IMG/VR virus record: IMGVR_UViG_3300037222_000066
Length of the DNA: 64,000 nt
Strand: one strand, 5' to 3'
From: a virus
The first letter of the stretch is position 1, and each line of letters starts with the position of its first letter. This document shows, piece by piece, positions 1,744 to 64,000 of the stretch. The notes below the pieces were generated by a model. It worked only from the letters and a program-made list of their open reading frames with translations, was not told where the DNA came from and did not search any database. The position numbers and the translations under genes are program-made.

Positions 1744-2754
1744 TTAGTTGCCCGGAGTGACCTGAGCCTGAACCAGCGCTTTGCCGTCCACGATCTGATA
1801 ACCGTAGACCTGCAAGCCGCGCAAGATTTGACCGAAGGTCAGCTCGGACCGCAAGGTTTCGACCTTGCTGATCTGGCTGGCAAAAGTCAGTCCGTGCGCG
1901 TGGCCCGCGTAGATCGGCCATTCGCCAGAGTTGAAGTTCGCCGGCTGACTGGTGTTGTTCGGCAGCAAGTTGCTGATGTACAACGTGAACCGGTCGATCA
2001 TGCCCAACCGGCCATTTCGCAGCATCGAGACGCTGTCACCAGACAGATAAGCCTGGCGCAGTTCCGACTGCTTGATCTGGCGACCGGCCCAAGCCGGCAA
2101 CACGACCCAGCGGCCGACTTCCGGGATATTCTGCTCGTCCAGGACCTGTCCCATACGCATCAGAACGTCCAAGAGTTCGATCTGGCCGCCCGTCGGGTTC
2201 TTGGAAACCACGGTGAGCGGAGAGCCTTGGATGCCCAGGTTCAGCGACGCGGTGATGACACCGGCCGTAGTACCCTGGTTTTGAGCAGCCATGCCGCCAT
2301 AGATGCCACCGAGAACGTCCTGGTCCACGGTGATTTTCAGCTGCTGCGCTGCGTCGTCGGACCACATTGACAGAACGTTCAGATCGCTCTGAATTTCCAT
2401 CACGTCGTCCAGGATCAGCGAGAAGTACTTGCCGTTGCCGATATACAACTCGACAGTGCCGGCAGTCGGGCGGTCGAGGCCCAGCAAGCCGTCAGCATCG
2501 TAGTTGTGGATCGAGATCGTGGGCTTCGTGCGGATTTTGACGCGGTCGCCCTTGTTCTTGATCTCGCCCTCGTAATCGGTGTTCGAGATCGCGGCCAGCA
2601 CGGTGCTGGCATAGAACTTTTCGATGAGCTTACCCGACCAGATTTCCGGGATAAATCCCGTAGCCTGGAGGTTGTTGCCCGAAGAACCTACCGGATAAAT
2701 CGCGGGCGTAGTGCCTGCGGTTGCGCCGGGAAAACCTGAACTCGGAATAGGCAT
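1744..2754 (-). CDS. major capsid protein (HK97-fold type, 336 aa)
   Basis: 336 aa, directly follows an Ala/Gln-rich scaffold-like gene; FIPEIWSGKL-type N-terminal region typical of phage coat proteins; strong RBS (rc CCTCTATG context). Confidence 0.7.
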   Translation of the reverse strand: MPIPSSGFPGATAGTTPAIYPVGSSGNNLQATGFIPEIWSGKLIEKFYASTVLAAISNTDYEGEIKNKGDRVKIRTKPTISIHNYDADGLLGLDRPTAGTVELYIGNGKYFSLILDDVMEIQSDLNVLSMWSDDAAQQLKITVDQDVLGGIYGGMAAQNQGTTAGVITASLNLGIQGSPLTVVSKNPTGGQIELLDVLMRMGQVLDEQNIPEVGRWVVLPAWAGRQIKQSELRQAYLSGDSVSMLRNGRLGMIDRFTLYISNLLPNNTSQPANFNSGEWPIYAGHAHGLTFASQISKVETLRSELTFGQILRGLQVYGYQIVDGKALVQAQVTPGN

Positions 2755-2810: not shown

Positions 2811-3935
2811 TTAGCGGACACGCCCTTCTCGTTGTGCAGCAAAAATGAGTGCTTCATCTGCTGTACGTTCTTTCTCACGTCCGACATAAGATTGTCGTAC
2901 CGGCTGGGAATAGAACTTCGCAATTTGGGCGCGAGTGAAAGTTGGCTTGTCCGCGGGTCCCAGTGTAGCACCAGGGGCCGGCTTCGCCCTGCCAGGAGCT
3001 GCGAGTGATGATAGCGGGACCGCTGCTTGTCTCTGAGGGGCGGCCGGTGTTTCCGACTGCCGCTCTGGCTGCGGGGCTAAATCCTCATTGCCCGTGACTG
3101 CTTCATCTCTGATGAAGCCATCGAAGAATGCTTTGACCTGGGGGCCGTTCGCCGCCTGGTACGCTGCATCCAACATCGCCTTTCTAACCTGACCCGAGTA
3201 AACGTCCCGTAAACGGAGCCAATTTAAAAAGCGAGGATCAGCATTTATTTCTCGCCAGTTAGGAATATCCCTATCCAACAGCTGTCCAACCCGCATTTTG
3301 GCGTCTTGGCGGGCTTGCTGGGTTAGCCTGGCGTTCTGGTTCTTGAGCGCATCCAGCTCAGGACCCACGGTTTCCTGGGCCGCGCGGCGCGCGAGGTCAA
3401 TGAGTTCTGACCCAAAAGCCTGCTCGTCCTCCTGGGTGATCAGCTTGGCGGCCGGCGCCGGCGACTGCTGGCGCTGCTGTTGCTGCGGTTGACGACCCTG
3501 TAAGAGCGTCTGGGTCCGCATCAGCTCGTCCCCGAGCTGGGACATTTGCTCCTGCATGGAGCCAATGGTTTGCTGCGCTGCATCATAACGGCCCTTCATG
3601 GACCGATACCGGTGCTCCCAGTTATCACCCTCAGCTAGCTGCTGGTCAGCCTGAATGTCCGGTTGTTTGACCGGTTCCACAGACGCGGAACCCTCTGGTT
3701 TTGCTGGCTTTTTAGCCCGAATAGGCTTGGGTTTAACCTCGTCGGCGGCCGCTTCGGCCTCCGCGGTGCGCGCGGCTTCGGCAGCGGCCGCGGCCACTTC
3801 CTCCGCGGTCGGCTCGGTCTTGTAATAAGCTTCCGCCTTAGCGGCAGCCTCTTTGACCGATTTTGGGATTAAAACGCTGGTATCTTCGGGGGCGATGGGG
3901 GCAGGCGTGGCGTTACGTTCGACTTCGATAGGCAT
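2811..3935 (-). CDS. scaffolding protein candidate (374 aa, Ala/Glu/Gln-rich coiled coil)
   Basis: Position immediately upstream of the capsid gene; low-complexity EAAAKAEA / QQQQRQQ helical composition. Confidence 0.55.
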   Translation of the reverse strand: MPIEVERNATPAPIAPEDTSVLIPKSVKEAAAKAEAYYKTEPTAEEVAAAAAEAARTAEAEAAADEVKPKPIRAKKPAKPEGSASVEPVKQPDIQADQQLAEGDNWEHRYRSMKGRYDAAQQTIGSMQEQMSQLGDELMRTQTLLQGRQPQQQQRQQSPAPAAKLITQEDEQAFGSELIDLARRAAQETVGPELDALKNQNARLTQQARQDAKMRVGQLLDRDIPNWREINADPRFLNWLRLRDVYSGQVRKAMLDAAYQAANGPQVKAFFDGFIRDEAVTGNEDLAPQPERQSETPAAPQRQAAVPLSSLAAPGRAKPAPGATLGPADKPTFTRAQIAKFYSQPVRQSYVGREKERTADEALIFAAQREGRVR

Positions 3936-3958: not shown

Positions 3959-4201
3959 CTATTGCGGTACGGGCGGTTTGGGCTTCTGTTTGTCGCACTC
4001 TCTAAAAACACGCAGCAGGTGCAGGCATTGCCGCGCTTGCCCCTGCAAAACCAAGACGTTGTCCGACCCGGCCGCGGTTACATCGAGAACGACATGGTCG
4101 GTATAGGCAGCAAATGAAGCCACAAAATTGTCCCACCCCTCGGGGTTGGAATTTCGTAGCCGTAGTGCTGTTTCTGTTAAGTCCTTGGGGGGTAAGGACA
4201 T
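3959..4201 (-). CDS. hypothetical protein (80 aa)
   Basis: Co-oriented ORF in the late operon. Confidence 0.35.
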   Translation of the reverse strand: MSLPPKDLTETALRLRNSNPEGWDNFVASFAAYTDHVVLDVTAAGSDNVLVLQGQARQCLHLLRVFRECDKQKPKPPVPQ

Positions 4202-4204
4202 TTG

Positions 4205-4435
4205 TTAGTTGCCGCCTCCGTAACTGCCGCCACCACCATAATCACCGGGAGCCGTCGGGGCGCCGATGGTCGGCGTCGCTTTGGCGTAGTCTTGCATGGT
4301 GCGCGCGGCTGGGTCGCCAGAAGTTAAGGTCTGCATAGCGCTGCGCGACGGCAGTTGCTGCTCGCTGGCACCTTTGCCAGCGTTCTTGACCATCTGGCCA
4401 CCCTTACCTAGCGGGGTCATGTGTTTCTTGAACAT
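4205..4435 (-). CDS. small Gly/Lys-rich protein (76 aa)
   Basis: Tightly packed with neighbours (1-nt overlaps); shares a K-x-HM-x-G-K motif with the 4677-4904 and 45345-45692 products. Confidence 0.4.
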   Translation of the reverse strand: MFKKHMTPLGKGGQMVKNAGKGASEQQLPSRSAMQTLTSGDPAARTMQDYAKATPTIGAPTAPGDYGGGGSYGGGN

Positions 4436-4677
4436 CAGCTCTCTCCCGTTAGCGCGGTATTGCCGAAGCCGAAAGGAGGCGGCGTTGGCTGTTTACCGAA
4501 GTTGGGCTGTCCTGCCTGCTTGCCGTACTGGGTCGTGCTGCCCGGCTGGGGCTTAATGGTTAACGATCCCGGGGGCTGGGCCCGTAAACTGGGCGGGCGA
4601 GACCCCAGAACAAAAGAGGGTCGGGACTGGGCCGTTGGGCCCCGTACCGCCGTTTTCCCCATACGAACGCTCGGCAT
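4435..4677 (-). CDS. small Pro/Gly-rich protein (80 aa)
   Basis: Co-oriented, abutting ORF; low-complexity composition. Confidence 0.3.
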   Translation of the reverse strand: MPSVRMGKTAVRGPTAQSRPSFVLGSRPPSLRAQPPGSLTIKPQPGSTTQYGKQAGQPNFGKQPTPPPFGFGNTALTGES

Positions 4678-4904
4678 TAGCGGGCTCCCGTAATGCCCGC
4701 CGTAGCCGCCTGCGCGCCGGCAAAGCCGTGCATCTTGGTCTTGCCGCCGCTGGCAAACTTCTCGCCAGAGCCAGCGCCGGCGTCGGTCTCGGTCACGCCC
4801 GACTTTTGGGCGCCAACCTTCTGCGCGCCAAACATATGGGTGTTGCCACCCTTGGCGAACTCGACGTTATGCTGCTTCTCTTTCTTCTGGGTATCGACGG
4901 ACAT
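4677..4904 (-). CDS. small Gly/Lys-rich protein (75 aa)
   Basis: Motifs EFAKGGNTHMFGAQK and KTKMHGFAGAQ resemble the 4205 and 45345 products. Confidence 0.4.
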   Translation of the reverse strand: MSVDTQKKEKQHNVEFAKGGNTHMFGAQKVGAQKSGVTETDAGAGSGEKFASGGKTKMHGFAGAQAATAGITGAR

Positions 4905-4967: not shown

Positions 4968-5975
4968 TTAAAAGAGGCGGTCTTTCCACGTCCGGGGGGT
5001 CTTGTCCGAGATAATCTCTAAGTCCAAGTGATACTTGAATGGTCGATACCCGCGCACGTCAATTGCTTCCACCATGTTCAAAAGACCCTTGGTTAAGGAA
5101 GTCTTGGTTTCATAGCCCAGGAGCCGGCGGGCCTTATACGACGAACAGTGCGCGTATTTAACTTCTTGCGGGCGACCTGGCATGTAGACAGGAACCAACT
5201 TGAACCGGACTAGATTTGCAATCGTCTGGGCCAACTCGTTGATTGTCACCACACCCTCGTCGGGCCCAATATTGATCACCTCGCCAACCACGTTTTCCTG
5301 GAACGCCATTGCCTTGAGACAGAACAAGCAATCGTCAATGTAGGAGAAGCATCGCTCTTGGGTGCCATCGCCATAGATTACAGGCTGCCGCCCCTGCATC
5401 ATGAGGTTCATCATAATCGAGGCTACGTTGCGGTACGGGTCATCATACTTTTGGCGGGGCCCAATTATGTTGTGGGGTACCGCAATGACATACTCAACGC
5501 CGTGCGTTTCGCACAGGTTTCTTAAAAACTGCTCTACGGCCAGCTTTCCGATCCCGTACGGGTCTTGCGGCCTGCACCGCATGCTCTCGATAAACGGCGG
5601 CATTTGGGTTCCCCCGTAACGCGCCATAGACGAACAGATCACTATACGCTTCACAGAATTCGATATGGCGGCGGAAATTACGGATACACTCGCCCCGACT
5701 ATATTCTGTGTCACAACATGCGGTGAGAACACGCTCAAGCCTTCGTACGCTGTCGCCGCGCAATGATACACTATGTCGCATCCTCGTATCCTTTCCTTCA
5801 CGTCGGAGAAGTCGTTGCAGTCGATCTGGTGAAACTCTACACCAGCCGGGACATTATCCAACTCACCGCCGATCATGTTGTCGATCCCGACAACCTCGTG
5901 TCCGTCAGCCAGCATTACGTCTGCGAGGTGGCTGCCTAAAAACCCAGCCACCCCAGTGATGAATATCCTACTCAC
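4968..5975 (-). CDS. NAD(P)-dependent sugar epimerase/dehydratase (extended SDR, 335 aa)
   Basis: N-terminal Rossmann motif TGVAGFLGSHL (GxxGxxG); catalytic YxxxK as YGIGK; length typical of UDP/dTDP/GDP-sugar epimerases and 4,6-dehydratases. Confidence 0.8.
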   Translation of the reverse strand: MSRIFITGVAGFLGSHLADVMLADGHEVVGIDNMIGGELDNVPAGVEFHQIDCNDFSDVKERIRGCDIVYHCAATAYEGLSVFSPHVVTQNIVGASVSVISAAISNSVKRIVICSSMARYGGTQMPPFIESMRCRPQDPYGIGKLAVEQFLRNLCETHGVEYVIAVPHNIIGPRQKYDDPYRNVASIMMNLMMQGRQPVIYGDGTQERCFSYIDDCLFCLKAMAFQENVVGEVINIGPDEGVVTINELAQTIANLVRFKLVPVYMPGRPQEVKYAHCSSYKARRLLGYETKTSLTKGLLNMVEAIDVRGYRPFKYHLDLEIISDKTPRTWKDRLF

Positions 5976-6579
5976 GATGGATCACGATCAAGAATTCGGG
6001 CATCGTACCGTGGCACTTGTCACACTCGTCCCAGCAATGAGCCTTGCCCAGGCCATTCGGGCACGCGATGGCTTCCCACCGATAGCCCGGCGGCATGGGG
6101 ACGTGATCCATCACGCTCTCGGGCTGACAGTCCAGCGTCACGTCTTCAATGATGTAGACCCCACCAGTCTTGAGAAACGGCAGGAGGGTCTTTGCAGACG
6201 TGATCTGATGCTCCAGTTCGTGCGAGCCGTCGTCAATGATAACGTCGAACAGCGGGTTCTCCCACTTCTCCAGGGACTGGCGCAACTGGGCCGGATTGTT
6301 CTGGTCGCATCCCAGACTATGAATGCGACCCGCGTTAACCAGGCAGGAATAGTTGCTGTCCAACCCGTACACGTCAGCGTTCGGAAAGAACTCCTCCCAC
6401 ATTCGCAGGCTGGAGCCGTAGTTAATTCCAATCTCCAGCAGGCGCAAAATGCTCTCCTGCTTATCCTTGAACAGGTCCCAGTACGCCACCGTGTATGTGT
6501 GGCAGGTGTCGCCGGCGAGATAATGATCGCCGCCTTTATCCGTAGCGTGTTTCTTAGCTAGCTCGCACAGTGGGGTCAT
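5968..6579 (-). CDS. class I SAM-dependent methyltransferase, sugar O-methyltransferase-like (203 aa)
   Basis: HATDKGGDHY N-terminal motif; LEIGINYGSS and DVIIDDGSH SAM-binding motifs. Confidence 0.65.
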   Translation of the reverse strand: MTPLCELAKKHATDKGGDHYLAGDTCHTYTVAYWDLFKDKQESILRLLEIGINYGSSLRMWEEFFPNADVYGLDSNYSCLVNAGRIHSLGCDQNNPAQLRQSLEKWENPLFDVIIDDGSHELEHQITSAKTLLPFLKTGGVYIIEDVTLDCQPESVMDHVPMPPGYRWEAIACPNGLGKAHCWDECDKCHGTMPEFLIVIHRE

Positions 6580-7280
6580 GGGACAAATCCTGTGAATTGA
6601 GTGGCATCGTGGTTGGCGGCATATTGCCTAAACGGGAGACCAGAGTTCAACTCTGTATAGGCCCAGATTGGCAAGTCAATAGGAACCGTGCTGGTACGTT
6701 GAATAAATCTCCTGCACTCCCAATTGTATGAACGATCAATGGCCGGCAGGTATCTTGACGGCCATATGTGGGTCGATCCAACAAACCGCCAGTTTGCACC
6801 GGTGTCGGATGGCACACCTTTCTCCCAGATACCGGGGAACGGAATGTAGTTCATTCTCTCCATGGCTTCGATGCGGCTTATGAATGTGGCAATGATCTCC
6901 TCGGTCACCGGCTTACCAGTCCACGCGCCCTGCTTGAGCACGCCGTAGTCGAGCCACACCCATACGTCTACCCGCGGGTCCGCAGCGGCGGCTATCATGG
7001 CCCACGCGGTGCGCTGGTGTTGCACAATGTTGGACAAGACCATATGCCGCGGCGTGGCGTACCTGTCAGACGGTACCTCCGTTGCCGGCGGCAAGTCAGG
7101 CATAACATGCTCTTTCATGTACCTATACAGCCAGCAATCCTCTAGCGGATAATCGTAGAACACCTTGATCTTGTCCCCGAGCGCCGAAACAAGACCATTC
7201 CCGAGCGCCGTGTATTGCTGGCGCGTCAGGTGCTTCACTTCGAGCGGCACGTAGGCCGTGACGGCTTTGACGATCATCAT
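6576..7280 (-). CDS. tandem paralog B of unknown function, possible group/glycosyl transferase (234 aa)
   Basis: Clear paralogy to 7277-7981 (DCWLY, IVQHQ(R/K)TAW, W(V/I)DYG(V/I)L and C-terminal R(Q/W)Y.A(N/D)H motifs); same length. Confidence 0.5.
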   Translation of the reverse strand: MMIVKAVTAYVPLEVKHLTRQQYTALGNGLVSALGDKIKVFYDYPLEDCWLYRYMKEHVMPDLPPATEVPSDRYATPRHMVLSNIVQHQRTAWAMIAAAADPRVDVWVWLDYGVLKQGAWTGKPVTEEIIATFISRIEAMERMNYIPFPGIWEKGVPSDTGANWRFVGSTHIWPSRYLPAIDRSYNWECRRFIQRTSTVPIDLPIWAYTELNSGLPFRQYAANHDATQFTGFVP

Positions 7281-7981
7281 GCCCTCGCGTAGTTGGTGAA
7301 CATCGTTTCATTGTGGTCCGCCTGGTACCAGCGGATCGGCAGGCTGCCATACTTCTCCACGCGCGCCAGGTCGTTCACTTCCCAGGTCACGTTTCGCTTG
7401 AGGTTGATGTTCCGCATAGTGCGGTCCATGAACTCGTTGGAGAACCGGCGCAGGTACTTGCGGGGCACGACCATCAAGCCCCCGCAGAACCGCCAGGACG
7501 GATTGCTGTCGTCGGACGGCCGATCAGGACCCCAGCATCCCGGGATGGCAAAATCGTCGTCTTTCACCTGCCCGAGGAAGTTGTTGATCACGTCCACGGT
7601 CACGCCCGGTACGTGCAGGATGCCGTAGTCAATCCACACGAAGGTTGTGGCGCTCGGGTCTACGAGGGACGCCGCGCCCAGCCACGCCGTCTTCTGGTGC
7701 TGAACGATATGGTAGGCAAGTGTGTTCTTGGCCGGGTTGTCCCCCATAGAGTGCGTCAAATGAAAAGCGCCGGCCTTCTGCAAGTCCTTGTACAGCCAAC
7801 AGTCTTCAACCGTGTTGTAGAACGCCTTGAACGGCGCGCGGATAGCGCGCAGCCCCTTACCCAACTCACTGTACTCGGACATTGGGCGGGGATGCCCTTC
7901 GATGGGTACAAAGCCGGTGACGACGCGAATTCTAGTCATGCCAGATAAACTCCGATAGCTCGTTGGCGTCCACGGTCGCAA
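7277..7981 (-). CDS. tandem paralog A of unknown function, possible group/glycosyl transferase (234 aa)
   Basis: Paralog of 6576-7280; 4-nt overlaps with both neighbours. Confidence 0.5.
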   Translation of the reverse strand: MRPWTPTSYRSLSGMTRIRVVTGFVPIEGHPRPMSEYSELGKGLRAIRAPFKAFYNTVEDCWLYKDLQKAGAFHLTHSMGDNPAKNTLAYHIVQHQKTAWLGAASLVDPSATTFVWIDYGILHVPGVTVDVINNFLGQVKDDDFAIPGCWGPDRPSDDSNPSWRFCGGLMVVPRKYLRRFSNEFMDRTMRNINLKRNVTWEVNDLARVEKYGSLPIRWYQADHNETMFTNYARA

Positions 7982-9935
7982 TCCAGGCTTCCTTGTCCTC
8001 GCGGCCGTACGAAATCATGATGCTCTGACCGTTCGGGTGCCACGCGAGCCCGGCCACAAACTCGATCACTTTATCGTGAAAGTAGAACGGCTTGGTGATC
8101 CGCTGAACTGTCTTTGACTTGTCGTACCACACGAACCGGTGCTGATAGTAGCGCTTGCCGTTGTGTGGATGCACGCGGGCCTCATGCACGACTGACAGGA
8201 AGCCGCACTTAAATGGGATCACCTGTGAACTTCCACTGATCGCGTCAGCCGCAATGTTGATGGGCGTGCGCGATTTTTCAACACCGTTAGGGCGCACAGT
8301 GACACCCAGACGATAAGCAAACTCTAAATCATTGCCGTCAACCCACGGCATCCAGTTCTTCTCGTGCTGGCGGTGCGCCGGCAGCATGGCCCGAGCATCG
8401 GTGAGTGTGGCGCAGGTAACAAACGTTCCGGGGGCATTTGTTTTGCCAACGTCAATCCTGGCCAACCATTGCTCACACCAGCCCTCGTGGTTCTGTTCCC
8501 GCACACAAGCGTTAATCCACCAGCTGTTATTCCAGCTGAACAACCGCATGTCTTCAAACCCGGTTACCAGATCATATGCCGGCTTCGGCAAATGGGCCTT
8601 AACCTCTGCGTGTTGATTGACCTCAAAGTTATCTTTCAATGATACCAAAAAATTACGGGTGTTGATCGGGTTGGTTGAGTTCGCTTCGCCGTTTGTGCTT
8701 TTGATCAGGTACCGCCCTTGCTCGTCCATCGTGTAGTTGACAGTTCGCACCAGCACACAAATTTGTCCATTAGCCACCGCTATAGACGGGTTCATCGCGG
8801 TGTATCCATCCGGCGGGGTGAACGCAATCCGGCGGGTGGAGAATGACGACATTCTCTCAGACAGGGGCCGGATATAATGAAACAGATTGCCGCGCGCTTG
8901 CTCTCGGGAGAAATCGCTGGCGTCCTTAGACAGTGCAACATAGTTGCACATATCAAACCCACGCTCGCGGCGAGCCTTATCGTAGTACGCTACGATAGCG
9001 AACTCTTCGCGCAGCCCAATGGTGTAGACATAGTCATTCACAAACAACAGATCGCCGGGACGCTTGATGCGTAACCCCTCTTCGGCAACTAGGAGCGCGG
9101 CATAATTCATACCTTTAGTTCTGTAGTAGTTAGCTAGTGCATAGAGGGTTTCCGCACGACTGGGACGAAAATTGTATGCCCCCAACATTTCGGCCACAAA
9201 GCCACTATCATTTCCACTCTCGCGGAGCGTATTAGCGAGGTTAAAGCTAGCATTCCAGATTTCCTCGTCCCATCCCCCGAGTTCAATCCTTTTGCGATAA
9301 GCCTTCGCAGCCTTCTCCGGTTGGCCCGCATCCTTATAAGACTGAGCAAGATAGAACCACGATCTACCATTGTTTGGGTCCGTCTTTATTGCTTCCTTCA
9401 ACAGTCGAATATCTCGTACGGACTTATTCTTGCGATTAGAGCCATCTGCATGATCTTGAAAGTAAATTCCATGCACCTCGCCAGCCGTGGTCACGTCAAG
9501 ATATTCGTGCGTCACACCTACATAGTTTCCAGTGGCAGCACGGCTGACGAAGCGCGCATTGTGGTAGGACAGCGTGCCACCCTTCTGCACGACGTTATAG
9601 GCCATGCCGCTGCCTAGTTGTTTTTTGAAATTTTTGTCCTCGACAACCAGCTCCATATCCGCGTCACACAGGAGCAGATAGTCCCAAGAAAGCGGCGATT
9701 TTCGCGCGAGAGCGAGAGCGGCATTCCGGGCCTGCTCAAAGTTAACGAATGGAGCGTGCGTGATCTCGCCGGGAATTGATGCCGCGGCGAAGAACCCTTC
9801 AATCTTTTGTATGGTGTCATCGGTGCTTCCTGTGTCAACAATGGCATAGCTATCAATATGGGGGGCCACACTCTTGAGCATTCGCTCAATTCGGTCAGCT
9901 TCGTTCTTAACAATACAATTGAGCATTAATTTCAC
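7932..9935 (-). CDS. family 2 glycosyltransferase fused to TPR repeats and a C-terminal beta-rich domain (667 aa)
   Basis: N-terminal CIVKNEADRIERMLKSV...YAIVDTGSTDDT is a typical GT2 signature; central AQSYKDAGQPEKAAKAYRKRIELG TPR-like repeats; C-terminal ~300 aa of unknown fold. Confidence 0.65.
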   Translation of the reverse strand: MKLMLNCIVKNEADRIERMLKSVAPHIDSYAIVDTGSTDDTIQKIEGFFAAASIPGEITHAPFVNFEQARNAALALARKSPLSWDYLLLCDADMELVVEDKNFKKQLGSGMAYNVVQKGGTLSYHNARFVSRAATGNYVGVTHEYLDVTTAGEVHGIYFQDHADGSNRKNKSVRDIRLLKEAIKTDPNNGRSWFYLAQSYKDAGQPEKAAKAYRKRIELGGWDEEIWNASFNLANTLRESGNDSGFVAEMLGAYNFRPSRAETLYALANYYRTKGMNYAALLVAEEGLRIKRPGDLLFVNDYVYTIGLREEFAIVAYYDKARRERGFDMCNYVALSKDASDFSREQARGNLFHYIRPLSERMSSFSTRRIAFTPPDGYTAMNPSIAVANGQICVLVRTVNYTMDEQGRYLIKSTNGEANSTNPINTRNFLVSLKDNFEVNQHAEVKAHLPKPAYDLVTGFEDMRLFSWNNSWWINACVREQNHEGWCEQWLARIDVGKTNAPGTFVTCATLTDARAMLPAHRQHEKNWMPWVDGNDLEFAYRLGVTVRPNGVEKSRTPINIAADAISGSSQVIPFKCGFLSVVHEARVHPHNGKRYYQHRFVWYDKSKTVQRITKPFYFHDKVIEFVAGLAWHPNGQSIMISYGREDKEAWIATVDANELSEFIWHD

Positions 9936-10318
9936 TTGTACTTCTCCAGATAATCTGCAACGAGCCGCAGGTGCTTAGGGCTGTCTACCGCATGACCAGC
10001 GATCAAATTACAAGGTTGGCATAAAATTCCCCTAACTTTTCCGGTATCGTGGTCGTGATCTGTAGTCCAGCCCTTTCGCGTGCCCGCCGCATCACTACCA
10101 CACGCAGCGCATTTGTAATTTTGGGACATAAAAATAGCATCCCGCTGTTCTAGCGTGATGCCATATAACCTAATCTGATTGAGATTTTTTATGCGTAGCT
10201 TATTGTCGTCGCGCCATTGCTGGTACCGCGGACGATTTTTGCGTGAATACTCCGCGCAACGTGCCTTATTACGTTTACGCCACGCCTTTGAATATTCTGG
10301 ACTAGACGGCATTGACAC
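9932..10318 (-). CDS. HNH endonuclease, endonuclease VII family (free-standing homing endonuclease, 128 aa)
   Basis: CAACGSD...TDHDHDTGKVRGILCQPCN motif; paralogous to 20029-20520 and 58430-58849. Confidence 0.75.
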   Translation of the reverse strand: MSMPSSPEYSKAWRKRNKARCAEYSRKNRPRYQQWRDDNKLRIKNLNQIRLYGITLEQRDAIFMSQNYKCAACGSDAAGTRKGWTTDHDHDTGKVRGILCQPCNLIAGHAVDSPKHLRLVADYLEKYK

Positions 10319-10380
10319 TCCGAAGGGGATCGGGGTTTGAGCTATAGGTTTTTAGCCTATAGCTCATTTCGTGTCAACTG

Positions 10381-11073
10381 TTATCCGTTGGAAATTCGGA
10401 GCGGGCCAGTCATGCCGGCATAACCGAAGCCAGTAGCGCCGGTCGTGCCCGTTGGTCCAGGATCATGAACGCGATATACCGCACCGAGAATATGCGGGTC
10501 CACCTTGAGCACAACGAACTTTGTAAACGTGGCCGGATTTTTGTTGTAGCCCGCGGGACCGGTGACGCCGGTGATGCCCGTGGAGCCTGTGGCCGAAGTC
10601 GGACCAGTCTTACCAAACGGCCCAATGCCCGTCGCGCCGGTGATGCCAGTAGGGCCGGTAAAGCCAGTTGGTGAAAGACCGGGCAATCCGACAAATGGAC
10701 CTGTCGTGCCAGTCGGACCAGTCGCGCCGGTATGGGTGGTACCTGATGGACCTGTAGGAGAGGTACCAGAAACACCAGTGCTTGCATTAATAGTGAGACC
10801 GGGACCCTGTGGGCCTGTACAACCCGTCGGACCAGTTTGACCCTGTGAAGGGCCATGAGCGCCGGCACCAATTATCCCAGTTGGACCTGTCGAGCTACCC
10901 GCGGCCGCTGCCGTAGGACCCTTCAAACCGGTTGCGCCGGCCGGGCCATAAACGTTGGCATTGTTGATCAGCTCAACGACTTCCTCCAGCACCGCTGGAA
11001 TTTCGTTGTCATCATACGACTGCGGCGGCTTAGGTGCCGGGGTCAGCGGATTTACATACTTGGCCATGCTCAA
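10381..11073 (-). CDS. collagen-like (Gly-X-Y repeat) protein (230 aa)
   Basis: Long GPTG/GATG triplet repeats across most of the protein, with non-repeat N- and C-termini. Confidence 0.6.
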
Positions 11074-11076
11074 CCT

Positions 11077-11646
11077 TTACCCGTTCGAGATAGTCAGTAC
11101 GCCACTGTTGTTCCACACCTGGTTGACCACATACGGGTCCGCGAGCGGCGGGATGAACAATGTCACCGTGGTCCCGGTCGGACCAGTGTTACCGGTCGCA
11201 CCCGTGGCACCAGTTACACCTTGACCAGTTGCACCGGTAGGCCCTGTCGTGGTGCCCGTGGTGCCCGTGGGGCCAGAGCTACCGGCGGGGCCGGTAGCGC
11301 CAGTCGTGCCAGTCGGACCAGTCGGGCCACCAGCCTGACCAGTGGCACCGGCGGGGCCAGCCGGACCAGCCGGGTTTGCACCCGTCGGACCCGTCGGACC
11401 AGTGTTACCAGTCGCACCCTGCGCGCCGGCCGGACCTTGCGGGCCGCCAAACGAACCGGTTGGACCAGTGACGCCGGTAGGGCCTGTCGGGCCCGTAAAA
11501 CCTGTTGCTGAACCAGTTGGGCCAGTCGGACCGGTCAAACCGGTTGGGCCACCAATGTTACCGGCATTAACTGCGGCAACGACCTGGGCGAGAATATTGC
11601 CAATCTGGTTTCGATCCGGATTGGTGACCGCGGGAATAGTTGACAT
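11077..11646 (-). CDS. collagen-like (Gly-X-Y repeat) protein (189 aa)
   Basis: [13 protein letters not shown]... repeats; globular C-terminal ~40 aa. Confidence 0.6.
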
Positions 11647-11706
11647 AGATGACCCCTTCGAGGCTGCCTGCGTGATATCGGTACGCTAGAATTCGTTGAT
11701 CGTTCC

Positions 11707-12516
11707 TTAATTCTCTAGGATAACTTTCGACCGGCCATTTGGCTTAAACCAGAAGGGAGGAGCAAACCGGGCAAATAGTTCGGGCGGCAAGGAAGTTTCC
11801 CGAGGGATTTTACGAACTCGCTTGCCTACTGCGTGGAGACCAGGAGTACCAAGTCTAGCGTCGAACTCAGACGCCCCGGGTATCGGCTGCACGTTGTCGA
11901 AGTCATGTTTTAGCGCGGGGAGGGATAACCATTCGTAAATAGCGCTAATAACACGCGCGGGATTAGCAGCGAGCCCATCATAATCCACCAACATTAAACG
12001 GTCCGCATAGGGCCCGTAGTATGCCTCTTTCAATGAATTCAGTGGATACCCGATCATCCCGTTAGAAGCCGCCAACATATCAGCACGATCAAATACGTTC
12101 ATATTGGCGTCAAATTTGAACAACCCGCTCACTTGTAACGGATATTTACGTAACAGTTTTTCAACGCTGTCCATAATCCACGCCGGCTGCCGCACACAAC
12201 AGATCAAGCGGCAATCTGGAAACAACTGGACTAGTAATGGCAATTTTCCGGTCCAGGCGCGATTGCTGTCTATCGCAGTAATTCTTGGGTCTTCCGGGTA
12301 GTACGCAGAAAATAAACCGGTAATCATGTTCGCGCGGTCCGCATCGGTTACAAACACGGACGTTTCCTGGTTAGCCGCGGTCGCACGTTGCACGGCATTG
12401 ACAATCCCATATATGGGCGAAATTATTGACGTTTGCAAAAACGGGTTCTGCTGGAGGATCGCAGCGAGTAGCGTGCTGCCGCTACGCGGGAGCCCGCTTA
12501 AAAAGTGAGCATTCAT
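11707..12516 (-). CDS. PAPS-dependent sulfotransferase-like protein (269 aa)
   Basis: N-terminal GLPRSGSTLL motif matches the 5-prime-PSB loop of Sulfotransfer_3/Stf0-type sulfotransferases. Confidence 0.6.
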   Translation of the reverse strand: MNAHFLSGLPRSGSTLLAAILQQNPFLQTSIISPIYGIVNAVQRATAANQETSVFVTDADRANMITGLFSAYYPEDPRITAIDSNRAWTGKLPLLVQLFPDCRLICCVRQPAWIMDSVEKLLRKYPLQVSGLFKFDANMNVFDRADMLAASNGMIGYPLNSLKEAYYGPYADRLMLVDYDGLAANPARVISAIYEWLSLPALKHDFDNVQPIPGASEFDARLGTPGLHAVGKRVRKIPRETSLPPELFARFAPPFWFKPNGRSKVILEN

Positions 12517-12522
12517 AAGGAC

Positions 12523-14838
12523 TTACCCTACACCTGGGGAAATAGGTTTAGCTCCGGGCCCGGGCTGGTTGCCAACCAAGGTTGCCGATTGAGGGCCTAG
12601 CCCATGGCCGGCCGGCTGTCCAGGTCTATTTCCCTGGCCCTGCGCGGCGGCGCGGTTCAAGTCCATTCCTGGGTTATTCGTTTGCCCATCCTGGCCACCG
12701 TTGCCCTCAGGCGTACCAATATGCACGGGCGGCCCTTCTGGCATCTGGGCGCGGGCGGCCAGCGCGCCGGCGGTCAATTCGGTCGCAATACGCTGCACGC
12801 CCAATTCGACGCCCTTATGGACACCTTGCTCGACCTGTTGGGTCATATCGCCGCCGCTGGCCTGTTGCTGCTTCTCAGCAGCGTCCATCTGCTCAATCTC
12901 TTGCTCACTCGGCACGATCTGCTCGCCGTCCAATCCGATGGTACTAGAGACTGACCGCAGCACACTGGCGCGGCCCTTGAGCCCGACGATCTTCTGATCA
13001 ACTGGGTTGATCGTGGCAGACAAGAACTCAATCTGGCGCTGTCGCAAAGTCTCGCGTTGGATCGCAACATTGACGCCCTGGACACTAATCTTCTCCTCGC
13101 CGGTCAGCAATCCGGTTGTATCGGTCAACATGATCAAGTCGGACAGTTGCAGGAGCGCGGGCTCCAGCACGTCCCGGTCAATATTAGCGCTCACGCTCTG
13201 CAAAATCTTCGAGGCATTGCCCATGAGCATAGCCAGCCCGGATGCGGTTCGGCCGGCGCCGCCGGCGGCACCCTGCCCACCAACATACTTCGGAATGGCC
13301 GAAACGTCATCGGCCAGGCCAACGCAGAACTCGAACACAGACTGGAGCTGCTGTGCGTTCGAGGTTGGCATAAAGAACGAAACAGGAACCTGGGCATTAT
13401 TACCCACCGGGTCGTTGCGCGCGTGCCAGCGCTTCCACGGATATAGATCATCAGTGTTCTCGTCCGGCGACACGCGGTCGTCGTTGATCACGACTTGCGG
13501 GCCCGAGGCTATGCTTAAGTTATTGACAAGACTACGTAAAGTGGCGTTTGCCACCTCCTGTAGATCGGTCAGCAAATCGGTCAATCCGTTACCAATGGGG
13601 GTACCCGGCACCTTCTCGAATGATGTAATAAAGTACGGATGGCGCTGTCGCGGGGATGGCGACAAATGCGCCTTAATGACATGCGTGCCAATGACCCACG
13701 CTTGAACATTGTAGTCCCGTAACTCGTCCGGGACAGCCAAACCATACTCTTGCAAAACGCGTCCCTGAACATTGCCGTTGAACTCCATCATGGAGAGCAT
13801 GCCGGACCGGTTCCAGGCCGGGTTCTCGCGGCTCTCTAAAGTTGCCCGTTCTGCATCGGTCGTGTCCCAGTTATCGTATAGGCCTCCACGCCCATATTCA
13901 TCCAAGACAGCTCGGATTTCATCCTCATTATACCCTGGCAAATCGAGCAGATCATTAATCTCGGCTCGGGTGATACGTAGCTTTTCGATGGTGTTTGCAT
14001 TTTCAATGTCCGCGACACCCGGTGTCCACCACAAATCGAACGGCGACACGCGGTTCCAGGTCAGCTTTGGCTTCTGTTGGACTGTGGGAGCGCCTCCGTT
14101 GGGCGGCCACACGACCTCAGGAACGACCTTTACAACCGGGCCTTTTATGCACGCGAACGGGAATATCGGCAGGTCTACCAGGAACTCCGCGAGAGCATGA
14201 TAGAAGCCACCATCGCGCAGCAGCCCTTCAATTTTTTCGTCGCTATCTCGGGCCTGCTGGGTCGCTTTTTTCTTGGCCGCGTCCTTGGCCGCCTCTACCA
14301 ACGCGTCACGGCGCTGCTTAACGTCGGCCGGGTTCGGGGGCTGCCCCTTATGCTGCTGCACGAGCTGCTGCTCGGACTGCATCATCTGGTCAATACTCTG
14401 GATGATTTGCGGCGGCACGACGGGATCGGACGGCGGCTTGACAGACCAGGGCTGGTCCTGGCCTAAATAAATATCCCGGAGCAGCGAACTGGCGGCACGG
14501 CATTTTTGGGCGATCAGGCGGGCGTACACCTGTGACCCGCCGAACTTGGCAATTTCGGCCAATTTGGAGGCATCGTACTGGCCATTGAACGTGCGGAGGG
14601 CAACCAATAGGCGCTCAGACCACCCGGACGCCGTGTTCCGGTGGTTCCGCATTATCTCGAATTGACCCTTGATATAGCCAGCTAACTGGGGTATTTCTGG
14701 CTCTGGAGGGGCATTGTCCTGCGCGGACGCCGTAGCCCGCTCCTGGAGCTGTTGCTCCAGCGCAGCCGGTGGGATAACTTGGAGTACGCCGCTTTGTCCG
14801 AGGTCGCTCATGCCTTGTCCGGCTGAAAAGGATTGCAC
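12523..14838 (-). CDS. portal protein candidate (771 aa)
   Basis: Large protein at the head of the structural operon, divergent from the terminase island; size and position fit a portal. Confidence 0.5.
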   Translation of the reverse strand: MQSFSAGQGMSDLGQSGVLQVIPPAALEQQLQERATASAQDNAPPEPEIPQLAGYIKGQFEIMRNHRNTASGWSERLLVALRTFNGQYDASKLAEIAKFGGSQVYARLIAQKCRAASSLLRDIYLGQDQPWSVKPPSDPVVPPQIIQSIDQMMQSEQQLVQQHKGQPPNPADVKQRRDALVEAAKDAAKKKATQQARDSDEKIEGLLRDGGFYHALAEFLVDLPIFPFACIKGPVVKVVPEVVWPPNGGAPTVQQKPKLTWNRVSPFDLWWTPGVADIENANTIEKLRITRAEINDLLDLPGYNEDEIRAVLDEYGRGGLYDNWDTTDAERATLESRENPAWNRSGMLSMMEFNGNVQGRVLQEYGLAVPDELRDYNVQAWVIGTHVIKAHLSPSPRQRHPYFITSFEKVPGTPIGNGLTDLLTDLQEVANATLRSLVNNLSIASGPQVVINDDRVSPDENTDDLYPWKRWHARNDPVGNNAQVPVSFFMPTSNAQQLQSVFEFCVGLADDVSAIPKYVGGQGAAGGAGRTASGLAMLMGNASKILQSVSANIDRDVLEPALLQLSDLIMLTDTTGLLTGEEKISVQGVNVAIQRETLRQRQIEFLSATINPVDQKIVGLKGRASVLRSVSSTIGLDGEQIVPSEQEIEQMDAAEKQQQASGGDMTQQVEQGVHKGVELGVQRIATELTAGALAARAQMPEGPPVHIGTPEGNGGQDGQTNNPGMDLNRAAAQGQGNRPGQPAGHGLGPQSATLVGNQPGPGAKPISPGVG

Positions 14839-58429: not shown

Positions 58430-58849
58430 TTAATTCTCCTCGATATAGTTCGCTGCCGCGTGCAACAGATCAGGATTATCGAGGAAGCGGCCTAAACCTG
58501 TATTGCAGTTAAGACAAAGAATACCCCGAACGAAACCTATACTCCCCTTAGATTTGCGCGGATTATGATCTGTGTGCCACCCGCGCGATTTCGCGCCATG
58601 CTCGCTAGTACGACATATTTTACATCGCCCCCCTTGTGCAGCTAATAGTTCATCACGCTGCTCAACGGTTATGCCATATGCGTGTTCAAATGCATATCGC
58701 AGCCTCGCTGTACGGTTGTTGACATAGCTACGTTTCTTTTGCGCCCGTTCTTTATCCGGGTGTGCCAACCGCCAACGCTTTCTATAAGCCCGACCCTTTT
58801 CGGAGCGTGCCCATTTTCCCCTAGCTTTTCGGTACACAGCGGTCGTCAT
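58430..58849 (-). CDS. HNH endonuclease, endonuclease VII family (139 aa)
   Basis: CKIC...HTDH...VRGILCLNCN motif. Confidence 0.7.
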   Translation of the reverse strand: MTTAVYRKARGKWARSEKGRAYRKRWRLAHPDKERAQKKRSYVNNRTARLRYAFEHAYGITVEQRDELLAAQGGRCKICRTSEHGAKSRGWHTDHNPRKSKGSIGFVRGILCLNCNTGLGRFLDNPDLLHAAANYIEEN

Positions 58850-61779: not shown

Positions 61780-62496
61780 TTATGGAGTTCGGATACCAAT
61801 TTGGAACGACATCCATTGCGCCGCAGTAATAGTCACAGAAAAGCCACCCGTTGCGCCAGCGGTAGGTTGAACTTTATCACAAACCGTTGATGACCCGTTA
61901 ACGGAATTATTAGTGGACCCTTCTAAGGTATACCCGGTGGGAGTTGGAATAGTTTGATTACTACTGATCACTCCTAAAATAGCGACTATCAGTTCATTGT
62001 TAAAGCCCGTTGTTATAGTTGTGCCTAATAATGCGGTTCCTACTATAGTGCTTCCCGCCGCTGAACTTACATCTATAGGGGTCGTTGGATGAGTGCCTGA
62101 GTATTGGAGAACTTGACTTATAATAGTGACTACAGTTTCAGTGGTGGACCATGTAGGAGCCACATCTGAGCCAGTAGCAACCCGCCAAGCCCAAGCACGG
62201 GCGTTTGCTTTAGACGAATTTGAATTTACTATAGTCCAACCGGTTGAAACGGTTAGCGCGGCACCAGTGCCGGTGCCGGTATTATTACAATAGGATAAAA
62301 GCAAATTGCCAGGAACGATTGATGCAGGGAGCGGCGGCACTTGATTATTTAAAACGCCGCTAGTGAATGTACCCGCGTTAACAAACTGTGGTGGCGCAGC
62401 CGCGCCCCAATCCATAAAAAGTGCTTGGTGCAACGGAGCAGCCATCGCGAGGATCGGTGCCGAAGTAGCCAGCAACATGTGCAATATCGACTTCAT
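61780..62496 (-). CDS. Ser/Thr/Asn-rich beta protein, possible fibre distal/receptor-binding component (238 aa)
   Basis: N-terminal signal-like segment; follows the collagen-like fibre gene with a 4-nt overlap. Confidence 0.4.
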
Positions 62497-63980: not shown

Positions 63981-64000
63981 GACGCTCGCCGCGCCTACCG

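Follow-up and report, generated by a model that had tools for sequence, protein, structure and literature searches.

The stretch of viral DNA analysed here (the window, 64,000 nucleotides) carries, directly downstream of its portal gene, a cassette of sugar-modifying enzymes, a sulfotransferase and two collagen-like proteins. We consider it reasonably likely that this cassette is a late-expressed, cytoplasmic post-translational modification system with which the phage O-glycosylates its own collagen-like fibres. The link between enzymes and collagen-like proteins is supported by their joint presence in one phage clade and joint absence in its sister clade, and by homologs of the central GT2-TPR enzyme that adjoin giant Gly-X-Thr genes in unrelated loci. 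Moreover, the closest solved relatives of its GT2 domain (SunS, GmaR and ThuS) act on proteins or peptides, and SgtA of C. difficile has the same architecture (PMC7157674).

Layout of the cassette

The nine genes are tightly packed on the minus strand (4968-12516). The first starts 6 bp past the portal stop codon, and four small conserved genes separate the last from the scaffold-like gene (Table 1). Neighbouring genes overlap by up to 8 nt or are spaced by up to 63 nt; five start/stop overlaps chain the genes of the endonuclease VII, the GT2-TPR enzyme, both GT-A paralogs, the methyltransferase and the epimerase. Promoter-like sites within the cassette showed no excess over chance (8 compared with 9.3 ± 3.1 in shuffles), and membrane-spanning segments were found in none of the nine proteins. 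A preliminary description of this DNA had listed eight adjacent genes; these genes and their coordinates are borne out, all on the minus strand, but the correct count is nine, the endonuclease VII gene having been omitted. All enzyme classes named in that description were recovered by profile or fold searches. The synteny that it proposed to look for is kept in dozens of related contigs; the arrangement is not a product of chance.

Table 1. Features of the cassette and of related genes in the window
Feature	Coordinates	Strand	Evidence and remarks
Major capsid protein	1744-2754		Flank of cassette
Scaffold-like gene	2811-3935		Flank of cassette
Four small conserved genes	3959-4904		Between cassette and scaffold-like gene
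Extended-SDR nucleotide-sugar 4-epimerase-like enzyme (GalE-like), 335 aa	4968..5975	-	PF01370, E 2e-45
SAM-dependent sugar O-methyltransferase, 203 aa	5968..6579	-	PF13578, phrog_21658, MycE/TylE PDB matches
GT-A fold glycosyltransferase paralog, 234 aa	6576..7280	-	Predicted; best match PBCV-1 A64R
GT-A fold glycosyltransferase paralog, 220 aa	7277..7939	-	Predicted; 30% identical to 6576-7280
GT2-TPR-GH130-like three-domain enzyme, 667 aa	7932..9935	-	Domain and fold matches
Endonuclease VII-type homing endonuclease	9932..10318	-	PF02945, E 4e-25
Second collagen-like Gly-X-Thr fibril protein, 228 aa from ATG 11067	10381..11067	-	Paralog of 11077..11646, interrupted repeats
Collagen-like Gly-X-Thr fibril protein, 189 aa	11077..11646	-	PF01391; candidate glycosylation substrate
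PAPS-type sulfotransferase, 269 aa	11707..12516	-	PF13469 and phrog_27463; first gene past portal; accessory member
Portal protein	12523..14838	-	PF23899 (SU10_portal), phrog_332 at 4e-55
Second endonuclease VII copy	58430-58849		
Large Gly-X-Thr collagen-like fibre protein, at least 495 aa	62493..63980	-	Triplets and PHROG tail-fibre families; runs off window end

Enzymes and collagen-like proteins

The largest enzyme of the cassette combines a GT2 domain of GT-A fold (residues 1-165), TPR repeats (about 170-355) and a GH130-like beta-propeller (about 365-656). The closest solved relatives of its GT2 domain are the protein or peptide glycosyltransferases named above. These comprise the glycocin S-/O-glycosyltransferases SunS and ThuS and the Listeria flagellin O-GlcNAc transferase GmaR, which differ from the phage enzyme in their substrates and have no GH130-like domain; against the NCBIfam SunS equivalog the phage enzyme reaches 28 bits, far under the cut-off of 350. 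We predict it to be an initiating protein O-glycosyltransferase joined to a beta-mannosyl-type transferase/phosphorylase.

Both smaller paralogs have a GT-A glycosyltransferase fold, and a homolog of the 220-aa protein was found in most relatives. Their best structural match is domain 1 of PBCV-1 A064R (A64R), a capsid-glycan rhamnosyltransferase that works with methyltransferase domains. However, this match is at the level of the fold, with 9% identity, and the canonical DXD is absent from the paralog family (D111 is present in 32 of 43 sequences, the second Asp is missing). The paralogs are predicted to extend the glycan, their catalysis being putative. The methyltransferase contains HATDKG, scores 30.9 bits with Methyltransf_24 (cut-off 26.3) and matches its phrog at 1e-17; its best PDB matches are the sugar O-methyltransferases MycE (3ssm, 1.1e-18) and TylE (8ia9, 2.9e-17). 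The epimerase carries GVAGFLG and YGIGK and matches best to UDP-Glc / UDP-GlcNAc 4-epimerases (4zrm at 5e-40, 6wjb, 6dnt), while staying under every NCBIfam equivalog cut-off. The sulfotransferase reaches 52.4 bits with Sulfotransfer_3 (cut-off 27, E 1e-13) and 2e-34 with its phrog; the 5′-PSB loop PRSGST and the 3′-PB residues R109 and S117 are invariant in 39 homologs. The endonuclease VII is a mobile passenger outside the pathway: copies lie at differing positions among the relatives, and none is found at the cassette site in one of them (L002).

In the 189-aa fibril protein (40.6 bits with the collagen family, cut-off 27.2) we counted 37 Gly-X-Y triplets; 27 of them have Thr at the Y position and 18 have Pro at the X position. 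An N-terminal motif (..NxIGxILxQVVxxVNxGxIGGPTG) and a C-terminal motif (..PPxxDPxVVxxVWNxxGVLTISxG) are kept across the clade. Its 228-aa paralog shares both motifs, ends in ..LRISNG and has 31 triplets, 20 of them with Thr at Y; a Pfam search gave no match, and PHROG tail-fibre matches arise from the repeats. The likeness to BclA drawn in the preliminary description is a good fit to these threonine-rich repeats. The large fibre protein beyond the head genes contains 87 triplets (Thr at Y in 65), a globular C-terminus and a 357-bp repeat in two copies of 98% identity, and matches PHROG tail-fibre families down to 8e-39. Every cassette-bearing relative that was checked has an equivalent gene past its head genes, and the sister clade has none; the large fibre protein is a second candidate substrate. 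Gly-X-Thr repeats would thus make dozens of threonine acceptors available per chain.

Distribution among relatives and beyond

Relatives were sampled by portal similarity and make up a large, uncultured group of soil phages; a search for a cultured member of this clade found none. All 28 complete cassettes, defined as loci that span portal to scaffold, contain collagen-like genes together with the GT2-TPR enzyme. Among portal-sampled loci with at least 4 kb downstream, collagen-like ORFs were present in 44/44 and the GT2-TPR enzyme in 43/44. Some of the relatives are prophages, for example L011 within a 193-kb contig.

The sister clade has homologous capsid and portal proteins, and neither glycosyltransferase genes nor collagen-like runs were found in Rhizobium phage RHph_TM3_14A and 13 reference-genome loci. 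These loci include Bradyrhizobium, Pseudolabrys and Xanthobacteraceae, and cultured Rhizobium phages belong to the clade. The host of the cassette phage is probably alphaproteobacterial.

The decoration genes differ among relatives. The O-methyltransferase gene is found in 19 of the 28 complete cassettes and the epimerase, which we regard as an accessory sugar-supply gene, in 6. At the same site other relatives have swapped in a prolyl-hydroxylase-type 2OG oxygenase (PF13640; best PDB match OGFOD1), a UDP-galactopyranose mutase or an extra methyltransferase. The sulfotransferase likewise varies: of 69 related contigs, 19 have it at the identical position. It had been called undescribed in a phage structural module; the enzyme class was correctly named, but with this recurrence its uniqueness was overstated.

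Giant Gly-X-Thr genes are also neighbours of GT2-TPR homologs in unrelated metagenomic and bacterial loci outside the clade, at distances of 3-120 bp in L147, L154, L198, L200, L208 and L213 and of roughly 1.3-1.7 kb in L148 and L012. The Gly-X-Thr protein of L012 has 1178 aa, and its contig is bacterial, with a length of 1.1 Mb. Collagen-like runs were observed at 36 of 80 GT2-TPR homolog loci outside the clade compared with roughly 2 of 22 controls. For about half of the more distant homologs, the retrieved DNA contained no collagen-like neighbour; some adjoin type I secretion genes instead.

Possible targets of the proposed modification, and known systems

In the pathway that we infer, from acceptor, step order and sugar identities to virion incorporation and biological role, the cassette would be co-transcribed late with portal and head genes, and its products would all be soluble and cytoplasmic. 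In the 667-aa enzyme, the GT2-TPR part would bind Gly-X-Thr proteins, namely the two adjacent small fibril proteins and probably the large fibre protein, and place the first sugar on threonines. The GH130-like domain and the two GT-A paralogs would extend the glycan, the MycE/TylE-like enzyme would O-methylate it and the GalE-like enzyme would supply a 4-epimerised UDP-sugar. The sulfotransferase may then add sulfate from host PAPS to the glycan or directly to protein. The decorated fibres, presumably virion components, would become fibrils of the head, neck or tail of the particle. The preliminary description had proposed a methylated, possibly sulfated glycan on the collagen-like virion proteins, capsid or tail fibres, and is partly supported: the link to the collagen-like proteins is backed, and virion location, sulfation of the glycan and capsid or tail fibres as targets are its presumptive parts.

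That the sulfotransferase acts on protein (at a conserved N-terminal Tyr-Asp motif or Ser/Thr candidates) or on some unrelated molecule of host or phage, and not on the glycan, is possible but rather unlikely. Its family profile ranks the protein-tyrosine sulfotransferases TPST1 (3.6e-11) and TPST2 (7e-9) ahead of any carbohydrate sulfotransferase in the PDB, the gene is always flanked by the portal and the collagen-like genes, the latter separating it from the sugar enzymes, and Y-D-(D/R/K)-N occurs in an acidic N-terminal stretch of many fibril proteins (SYDDNE in the 228-aa protein). However, the other fibril protein of the window reads PDRN there, with no Tyr, and the motif is equally common in relatives without the sulfotransferase. 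The TPST stretch GEET, in which we take the catalytic Glu to lie, is opposite SISSP of the phage family in the HMMER alignment, so that no Glu aligns with the presumed catalytic one. Sulfotransfer_3 is so broad a family that homology at such distance does not reveal the acceptor.

Glycosylation of other virion proteins (capsid, tail tube or portal) by these enzymes, with the collagen-like genes as mere neighbours, is improbable; it would resemble the mycobacteriophages Che8 and Corndog. The cassette does lie between portal and capsid genes, and the sole experimentally shown case of phage virion glycosylation concerns capsid and tail tube (PMC11600133, citing Freeman et al. 2023). Against this, collagen-like genes and GT2-TPR enzyme are strictly paired in the lineage, the enzyme family adjoins Gly-X-Thr genes in loci without any phage capsid genes, and the homologous capsid and portal proteins of the sister clade have no accompanying glycosyltransferase genes.

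Slightly less probable still is a modification of the host envelope (LPS O-chain, EPS, capsule) or of a molecule that the host secretes, serving superinfection exclusion or release. Phage glycosyltransferases are by default read in this way (PMC7029224), and PHROG places the GT2-TPR family in 'moron, auxiliary metabolic gene and host takeover'; some relatives, such as that in the 193-kb contig, are prophages, and the sulfotransferase weakly matches the Nod-factor sulfotransferase NoeE (2.5e-5, far under the cut-off). However, the cassette encodes no membrane-spanning enzyme, flippase, polymerase or lipid-carrier transferase, its overlapping genes lie inside the late head operon with an internal promoter signal not above chance, and the strict association with collagen-like genes and the protein- or peptide-acting relatives of the initiating enzyme also oppose it. 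Base glycosylation of phage DNA against restriction, a classic role of such enzymes (PMC7029224), is very improbable: no hydroxymethylase or base-hypermodification gene was found in ten scanned proteins of the replication module (of about 25 larger ORFs there), the SunS/GmaR-like GT2-TPR, GH130 and A64R-like GT-A folds are not of the DNA glucosyltransferase type, and a sugar O-methyltransferase and a sulfotransferase would make no sense for DNA.

For the proposed fibre modification, the closest characterised analogue, judged by described architecture, is SgtA-BclA3 of the C. difficile spore surface, in which SgtA (GT-A and 4 TPR) adds beta-O-GlcNAc to collagen-repeat threonines of BclA3, its gene directly adjoins the substrate gene, and the glycan is then extended and capped by other enzymes (PMC7157674). 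On the spores of B. anthracis, the repeats of the collagen-like BclA bear dense glycosylation whose terminal sugar is methylated (PMC10050317, PMC6222408). Similarly, the phage Gly-X-Thr genes have as neighbours a GT2-TPR enzyme, other glycosyltransferases and a sugar O-methyltransferase. However, the phage system, probably of an alphaproteobacterial host and not a Firmicute spore former, has an extra GH130-like domain and a sulfotransferase, and its small fibril proteins have just a motif of about 30 aa in place of the globular C-terminal domain of BclA. Mycobacteriophages (Che8, Corndog/cluster O, Myrna) modify virion proteins with tandem glycosyltransferases and an O-methyltransferase (PMC11600133, citing Freeman et al. 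2023); virion glycosylation by such phage genes was already known, and in this respect the preliminary description was overstated. The likeness is one of phage-encoded gene classes: the targets there are capsid and tail tube subunits of phages of Actinobacteria, and neither collagen-like substrates nor a sulfotransferase, a GH130-like domain or a TPR-bearing glycosyltransferase are reported. Giant viruses glycosylate autonomously, as PBCV-1 does with A064R/A061L. In mimivirus and marseillevirus, collagen-like proteins are hydroxylated and glucosylated, and sulfate-metabolism genes belong to the fibril glycan clusters of moumouvirus and cotonvirus (PMC9614988); these giant viruses infect eukaryotes, and their glycans are N-linked (PBCV-1) or attached via hydroxylysine (L230). 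Within a phage head module, SPP1 encodes gp12, a small trimeric collagen-like accessory protein that decorates the capsid surface (PMC6316719). Unlike the proteins described here, to which it has no sequence relationship, gp12 has 64 aa and lacks enzymes dedicated to it, and no glycosylation of it is known. If the phage fibres are modified as proposed, they would carry a variable anionic glycan coat that would affect adsorption, adhesion or stability.

Gene order around the late head operon

The window represents almost a whole phage genome: it encodes a terminase, a portal, a scaffold-like protein, an HK97-type capsid protein, internal virion proteins, an endolysin, a family A DNA polymerase and an SNF2 helicase, and one of its products recurs in identical form on metagenomic contigs of up to 65.7 kb. 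The preliminary description counted eight genes in the interval from epimerase to sulfotransferase; we found nine, a gene for endonuclease VII having been left out. The motifs it quoted (GxxGxxG, YxxxK, HATDKG and RSGST) are all present in the sequence.

Genes of the portal-to-capsid region in order of transcription, and the third gene for a Gly-X-Thr protein
Feature	Coordinates	Strand	Transcription order	Remark
Portal	12523-14838	-	1	
Sulfotransferase	11707-12516	-	2	
Collagen-like protein	11077-11646	-	3	
Collagen-like protein	10381-11067	-	4	
Endonuclease VII	9932-10318	-	5	
667-aa GT2-TPR enzyme	7932-9935	-	6	
Paralog (GT-A fold)	7277-7939	-	7	
Paralog (GT-A fold)	6576-7280	-	8	
Methyltransferase	5968-6579	-	9	
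SDR epimerase	4968-5975	-	10	
Four small genes	3959-4904	-	11	
Scaffold-like gene	2811-3935	-	12	
Major capsid protein	1744-2754	-	13	
Third, much larger Gly-X-Thr protein with globular C-terminus	62493-63980	-		Runs past window end

Neighbouring cassette genes are spaced between an 8-nt overlap and a 63-nt spacer. The sulfotransferase gene starts 6 bp past the portal stop codon, and five start/stop overlaps chain the genes for endonuclease VII, the GT2-TPR enzyme, both paralogs, the methyltransferase and the epimerase. Promoter-like sites showed no excess in the region (8 versus 9.3 ± 3.1 in shuffled sequence), and none of the cassette products contains a hydrophobic stretch typical of a membrane span. 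Judged from its sequence, the cassette belongs to the late head operon, and its products are predicted to be soluble and cytoplasmic.

Several further features of the window were recorded. The portal carries a Gly/Pro/Gln-rich C-terminal extension of ∼120 residues (12523-12900, residues about 650-771) that is covered by alignments with cassette-bearing relatives; alignments with portals of the cassette-free sister clade end near residue 650. Besides the endonuclease VII-type gene of the cassette there is a second one at 58430-58849. In relatives such copies occupy many different positions within and around the cassette, and between two near-identical contigs (L002 and L003) the gene is present in one and absent from the other, a scatter that is typical of homing endonucleases. 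Immediately upstream of the cassette copy is a 62-nt gap, which contains a perfect palindrome with a 13-bp stem (10338-10366). Two separate ORFs make up the family A DNA polymerase (region of 32099-33058, 33055-33501 and 33456-34457); they correspond to residues 1-311 and 325-636 of the undivided enzyme of Rhizobium phage RHph_TM3_14A. Between the two halves, an ORF of 148 aa (..LDRKDNDGNY..NCRWATP..) resembles an HNH-type homing endonuclease as judged by eye. ARAGORN also reported a tRNA-like gene at 30520-30596 with an undetermined two-base anticodon 'ct'.

Collagen-like proteins and sugar-active enzymes

The first of the two small fibril proteins in transcription order is collagen-like by profile (PF01391, 40.6 bits, cut-off 27.2) and contains runs of 6–9 triplets; the second has interrupted repeats and gave no Pfam match. 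The gene for the large Gly-X-Thr protein lies just after the head-completion genes on the circular map. The window proteins contain Thr-rich, Gly-Pro-Thr-like collagen regions resembling that of BclA: Thr occupies the Y position in 27 of 37 triplets of the first, 20 of 31 of the second and 65 of 87 of the large protein, and Pro is the commonest residue at X. Throughout the clade, both small proteins share a helix-like N-terminal motif and a C-terminal motif of ∼30 residues ending in ..VLT(I/V)S(N/A)G. Neither a globular C-terminal trimerisation domain of the BclA type nor an exosporium-targeting N-terminus was found in them, and the conserved C-terminal motif gave no domain match. By analogy, the small fibril proteins may work like BclA, but they do not belong to the BclA family. 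The large fibre gene (62493-64000) bears nested tandem repeats, including a 357-bp unit in two copies of 98% identity, which suggests recent repeat expansion and possible variation in fibre length.

The model of the 667-aa enzyme (pLDDT 92.7) shows three parts. A GT2 catalytic domain with a DXD motif is followed by TPR repeats, the arrangement of SgtA, GmaR and SunS, and by a five-bladed beta-propeller of the GH130 type (GH130/GT108 class) in which the polar residues R397, N400, Y401, E461, D462, R464, K526, H584, R595, H599 and R600 are invariant. By architecture and gene neighbourhood, its closest characterised analogue would be SgtA of C. difficile, which consists of a GT-A domain and four TPR repeats, is encoded beside bclA3 and transfers beta-O-GlcNAc onto the collagen-repeat threonines of BclA3 (PMC7157674). 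Both paralogs adopt a GT-A Rossmann-like fold. The DXD motif is absent from their family: the strand end where it is expected reads L-D-Y-G, with D111 conserved in 32 of 43 sequences and no second Asp. The paralogs may be a metal-independent variant, their activity being a prediction. By megablast, the region had no match among 50,697 phage records, and neither the full three-domain enzyme nor the GT-A paralog family was found in deposited phages, so that our comparison rests on metagenomic contigs. The GT2-TPR gene of Tunturi_5 lies outside the head module in an uninformative context.

The epimerase is an extended SDR protein with the motifs GVAGFLG and YGIGK (PF01370, 155 bits, cut-off 20.9), and its best PDB matches are UDP-glucose and UDP-GlcNAc 4-epimerases (4zrm with 5e-40, 6wjb and 6dnt). 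No NCBIfam equivalog reached its cut-off (galE 91.7 bits, cut-off 262; LegB 120 bits, cut-off 475). The methyltransferase belongs to Methyltransf_24 (PF13578, 30.9 bits, cut-off 26.3), and its core (residues 26-153) matches the macrolide sugar 2-O-methyltransferases MycE (1.1e-18) and TylE (2.9e-17); at 203 aa compared with 419 aa it is missing the N-terminal auxiliary domain of MycE. BclA of B. anthracis is densely glycosylated and its terminal sugar is 2-O-methylated (PMC10050317, PMC6222408).

Gene associations within and beyond the phage lineage

We sampled IMG/VR by portal similarity, which is unbiased with respect to the cassette, and analysed the best 80 of at least 590 related contigs. 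Among these 80, collagen-like ORFs were found in 44 of 44 loci with at least 4 kb past the portal and the GT2-TPR enzyme in 43 of them. Both collagen-like genes and the GT2-TPR enzyme are present in all 28 loci that reach the scaffold or capsid gene, and in each of these complete cassettes the collagen-like genes, as candidate substrates, lie directly upstream of the GT2-TPR gene. The remaining genes vary: the GT-A paralog family occurs in 23, the methyltransferase in 19, the epimerase in 6 and the sulfotransferase in 5 of the 28. With a requirement of at least 1 kb past the portal, 19 of 69 loci carry the sulfotransferase, which follows the portal directly or almost so and precedes the collagen-like genes; the apparent confinement of this enzyme to the window's own lineage was rejected as an artefact of sampling by the GT-A paralog.

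Other relatives carry substitutes at the cassette position, namely a 2OG-Fe(II) oxygenase, a UDP-galactopyranose mutase with a second SDR, a second methyltransferase, or endonuclease VII in varying positions. The oxygenase (PF13640, E 1e-14) lies inside the cassette of three relatives (L022:10726-11436, L026:7414-8169 and L029:10717-11478); its best PDB match is the prolyl hydroxylase OGFOD1, which hints that prolines of the collagen-like proteins may be hydroxylated, like those of eukaryotic and giant-virus collagens. In another relative a different SDR and a UDP-galactopyranose mutase (L032:8411-9430 and L032:10636-11760; PF03275, E 1e-57) replace the epimerase, implying galactofuranose in the glycan of that phage.

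The sister clade comprises the cultured phage RHph_TM3_14A and loci in Bradyrhizobium, Pseudolabrys, Xanthobacteraceae and other genomes. Its capsid proteins are 64–70% identical to that of the window and its gene order runs from the portal via small genes to the scaffold; no glycosyltransferase genes or collagen-like runs were found anywhere in the DNA examined. Since collagen-like genes and enzymes are both present in the cassette clade and both missing from the sister clade, we conclude that they were gained and kept together. One member of the cassette clade (L011, ENA contig_23932) lies within a 193-kb bacterial contig, which indicates that at least some phages of the clade are temperate or were assembled as prophages.

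Outside the lineage, GT2-TPR homologs of 28–50% identity adjoin giant Gly-X-Thr genes in unrelated contexts, in several cases at a distance of 3–120 bp: 3 bp in L208, 12 bp in L198 (a 201-kb contig), 25 bp in L213, 36 bp in L154 (a 1576-aa Gly-X-Thr protein), 54 bp in L200 and 118 bp in L147. Larger distances separate the homolog from its Gly-X-Thr neighbour in L148 (∼1.4 kb; a 1877-aa protein) and in L012, a bacterial contig of 1.1 Mb (∼1.7 kb; a 1178-aa protein in which over 242 triplets follow one another without a break). The composition of the latter protein (L012:2819-6355) is G 307, T 274 and A 229 of 1179 residues; its gene is close to that of a separate 307-aa DUF4347 protein and divergent from three others, which encode a GT2-TPR-GH130-GT1 fusion, a 290-aa product and a Methyltransf_24 protein. 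Altogether, collagen-like runs were found in 36 of 80 GT2-TPR homolog loci, many of which are only 3–6 kb long; about 22 control loci fetched for other reasons yielded marginal runs in about two. The association is not universal, as some homologs adjoin type I secretion genes and have no collagen-like neighbour. In three bacterial loci of this kind (L130, L131 and L132) no collagen-like protein was found within 10 kb. Here the GT2-TPR homologs are fused to methyltransferase domains and lie beside an ABC transporter/HlyD type I secretion pair; an adjoining 589-aa protein resembles, by eye, a Sel1-type repeat protein, and L131 and L132 also carry a GT-A paralog and a Sulfotransfer_3 gene.

Proposed fibre glycosylation and its alternatives

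Given the observed folds, operon structure and gene associations, we consider late, cytoplasmic O-glycosylation of the phage Gly-X-Thr collagen-like fibres the most likely mechanism. The glycan would be initiated by the SgtA-like GT2-TPR domain, and its extension would fall to the GH130-like domain and the GT-A paralogs; methylation, in some lineages together with sulfation or hydroxylation, would decorate it. We infer that the fibrils accept this glycan and are incorporated into the virion; the sugar identities and the sulfate acceptor are likewise predicted. The small collagen-like protein gp12, encoded in the head module of SPP1, can decorate capsids (PMC6316719), and giant viruses glycosylate collagen-like proteins, some of their fibril glycan clusters including sulfate-metabolism genes (PMC9614988).

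The sulfotransferase has the features of the PAPS-dependent Sulfotransfer_3 family (PF13469, 52.4 bits, cut-off 27), with both PAPS-binding motifs, the 5′-PSB loop PRSGST and the 3′-PB residues R109 and S117, invariant across its family. It is possible, if doubtful, that it sulfates a protein directly or acts on an unrelated host or phage molecule rather than on the glycan. The best solved relatives of the family profile are TPST1 and TPST2 (3.6e-11), a match too distant to fix the sulfate acceptor. We take the catalytic Glu of TPST to lie ∼20 residues past the 5′-PSB loop; in the HMMER alignment, GEET of TPST faces SISSP of the phage family, and no Glu is aligned there. The N-terminal Tyr-Asp motif of the fibril proteins does not track with the presence of the sulfotransferase, the alignment being judged by eye. 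Two bacterial homologs (45–52% identical) give no substrate clue by their contexts, one beside Hint_2 proteins and the other beside a PEP-CTERM protein. In a 4-Mb bacterial genome (L035:1473-9450), two Sulfotransfer_3 genes akin to that of the phage are interspersed with genes for three Hint_2 (Hedgehog/intein-like) domain proteins. Among deposited phages only ten records contain homologs, six from cyanophages and four from uncultured marine viruses; the single context inspected, that of cyanophage S-SKS1, is outside the structural genes and uninformative. A recent paper calls the role of these enzymes in phages unclear (PMC10580990). Our literature search on phage sulfotransferases yielded no description of one in a phage structural module.

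Mycobacteriophages of cluster O, among others, modify their capsid and tail tube by means of three glycosyltransferase genes and an O-methyltransferase gene (PMC11600133, citing Freeman 2023). The cassette has a comparable set of genes in a row, one for an O-methyltransferase and three for glycosyltransferases, the latter with four glycosyltransferase-like domains in all. That the enzymes target virion proteins other than the fibrils is unlikely. Annotations routinely place phage glycosyltransferases among the host-takeover genes, with DNA or O-antigen as their target (PMC7029224). For this cassette we regard modification of the host envelope as quite improbable and modification of phage DNA by the glycosyltransferases as next to negligible; DNA modification was rejected as a role of the cassette after a scan of ten replication-module proteins, out of roughly 25 larger ORFs in that region.

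Glycosylation of the fibres may extend to a broader picture, which we put forward tentatively and hold to be rather doubtful as a whole. The phage coat would be mucin- or proteoglycan-like, made of collagen triple-helix fibrils whose Thr residues carry methylated and, in about a quarter of the lineages, sulfated O-glycans. The GT2-TPR(-GH130)/Gly-X-Thr pair would represent a widespread, so far unrecognised O-glycosylation system of soil and freshwater bacteria and their phages, with SgtA-BclA3 as one special case. If this picture is true, a bacterial virus would for the first time be found to bear a sulfated glycoprotein, and a phage sulfotransferase would receive its first assigned function. 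In the clade, which counts at least 590 IMG/VR contigs, a defined set of enzymes is tied to a candidate substrate, a defined and repetitive protein. If the proposed glycosylation of the fibres is correct, collagen-like fibrils would join the known phage glycoproteins, and virion glycosylation would reach from actinobacteriophages to phages of Gram-negative soil bacteria. The Gly-X-Thr/GT2-TPR gene pair could then serve as a rule for annotating many bacterial loci. The variable genes (epimerase, galactofuranose mutase, hydroxylase, methyltransferases and sulfotransferase) would resemble an O-antigen-style diversification of the phage surface, with consequences for adsorption, adhesion in soil and immune recognition.
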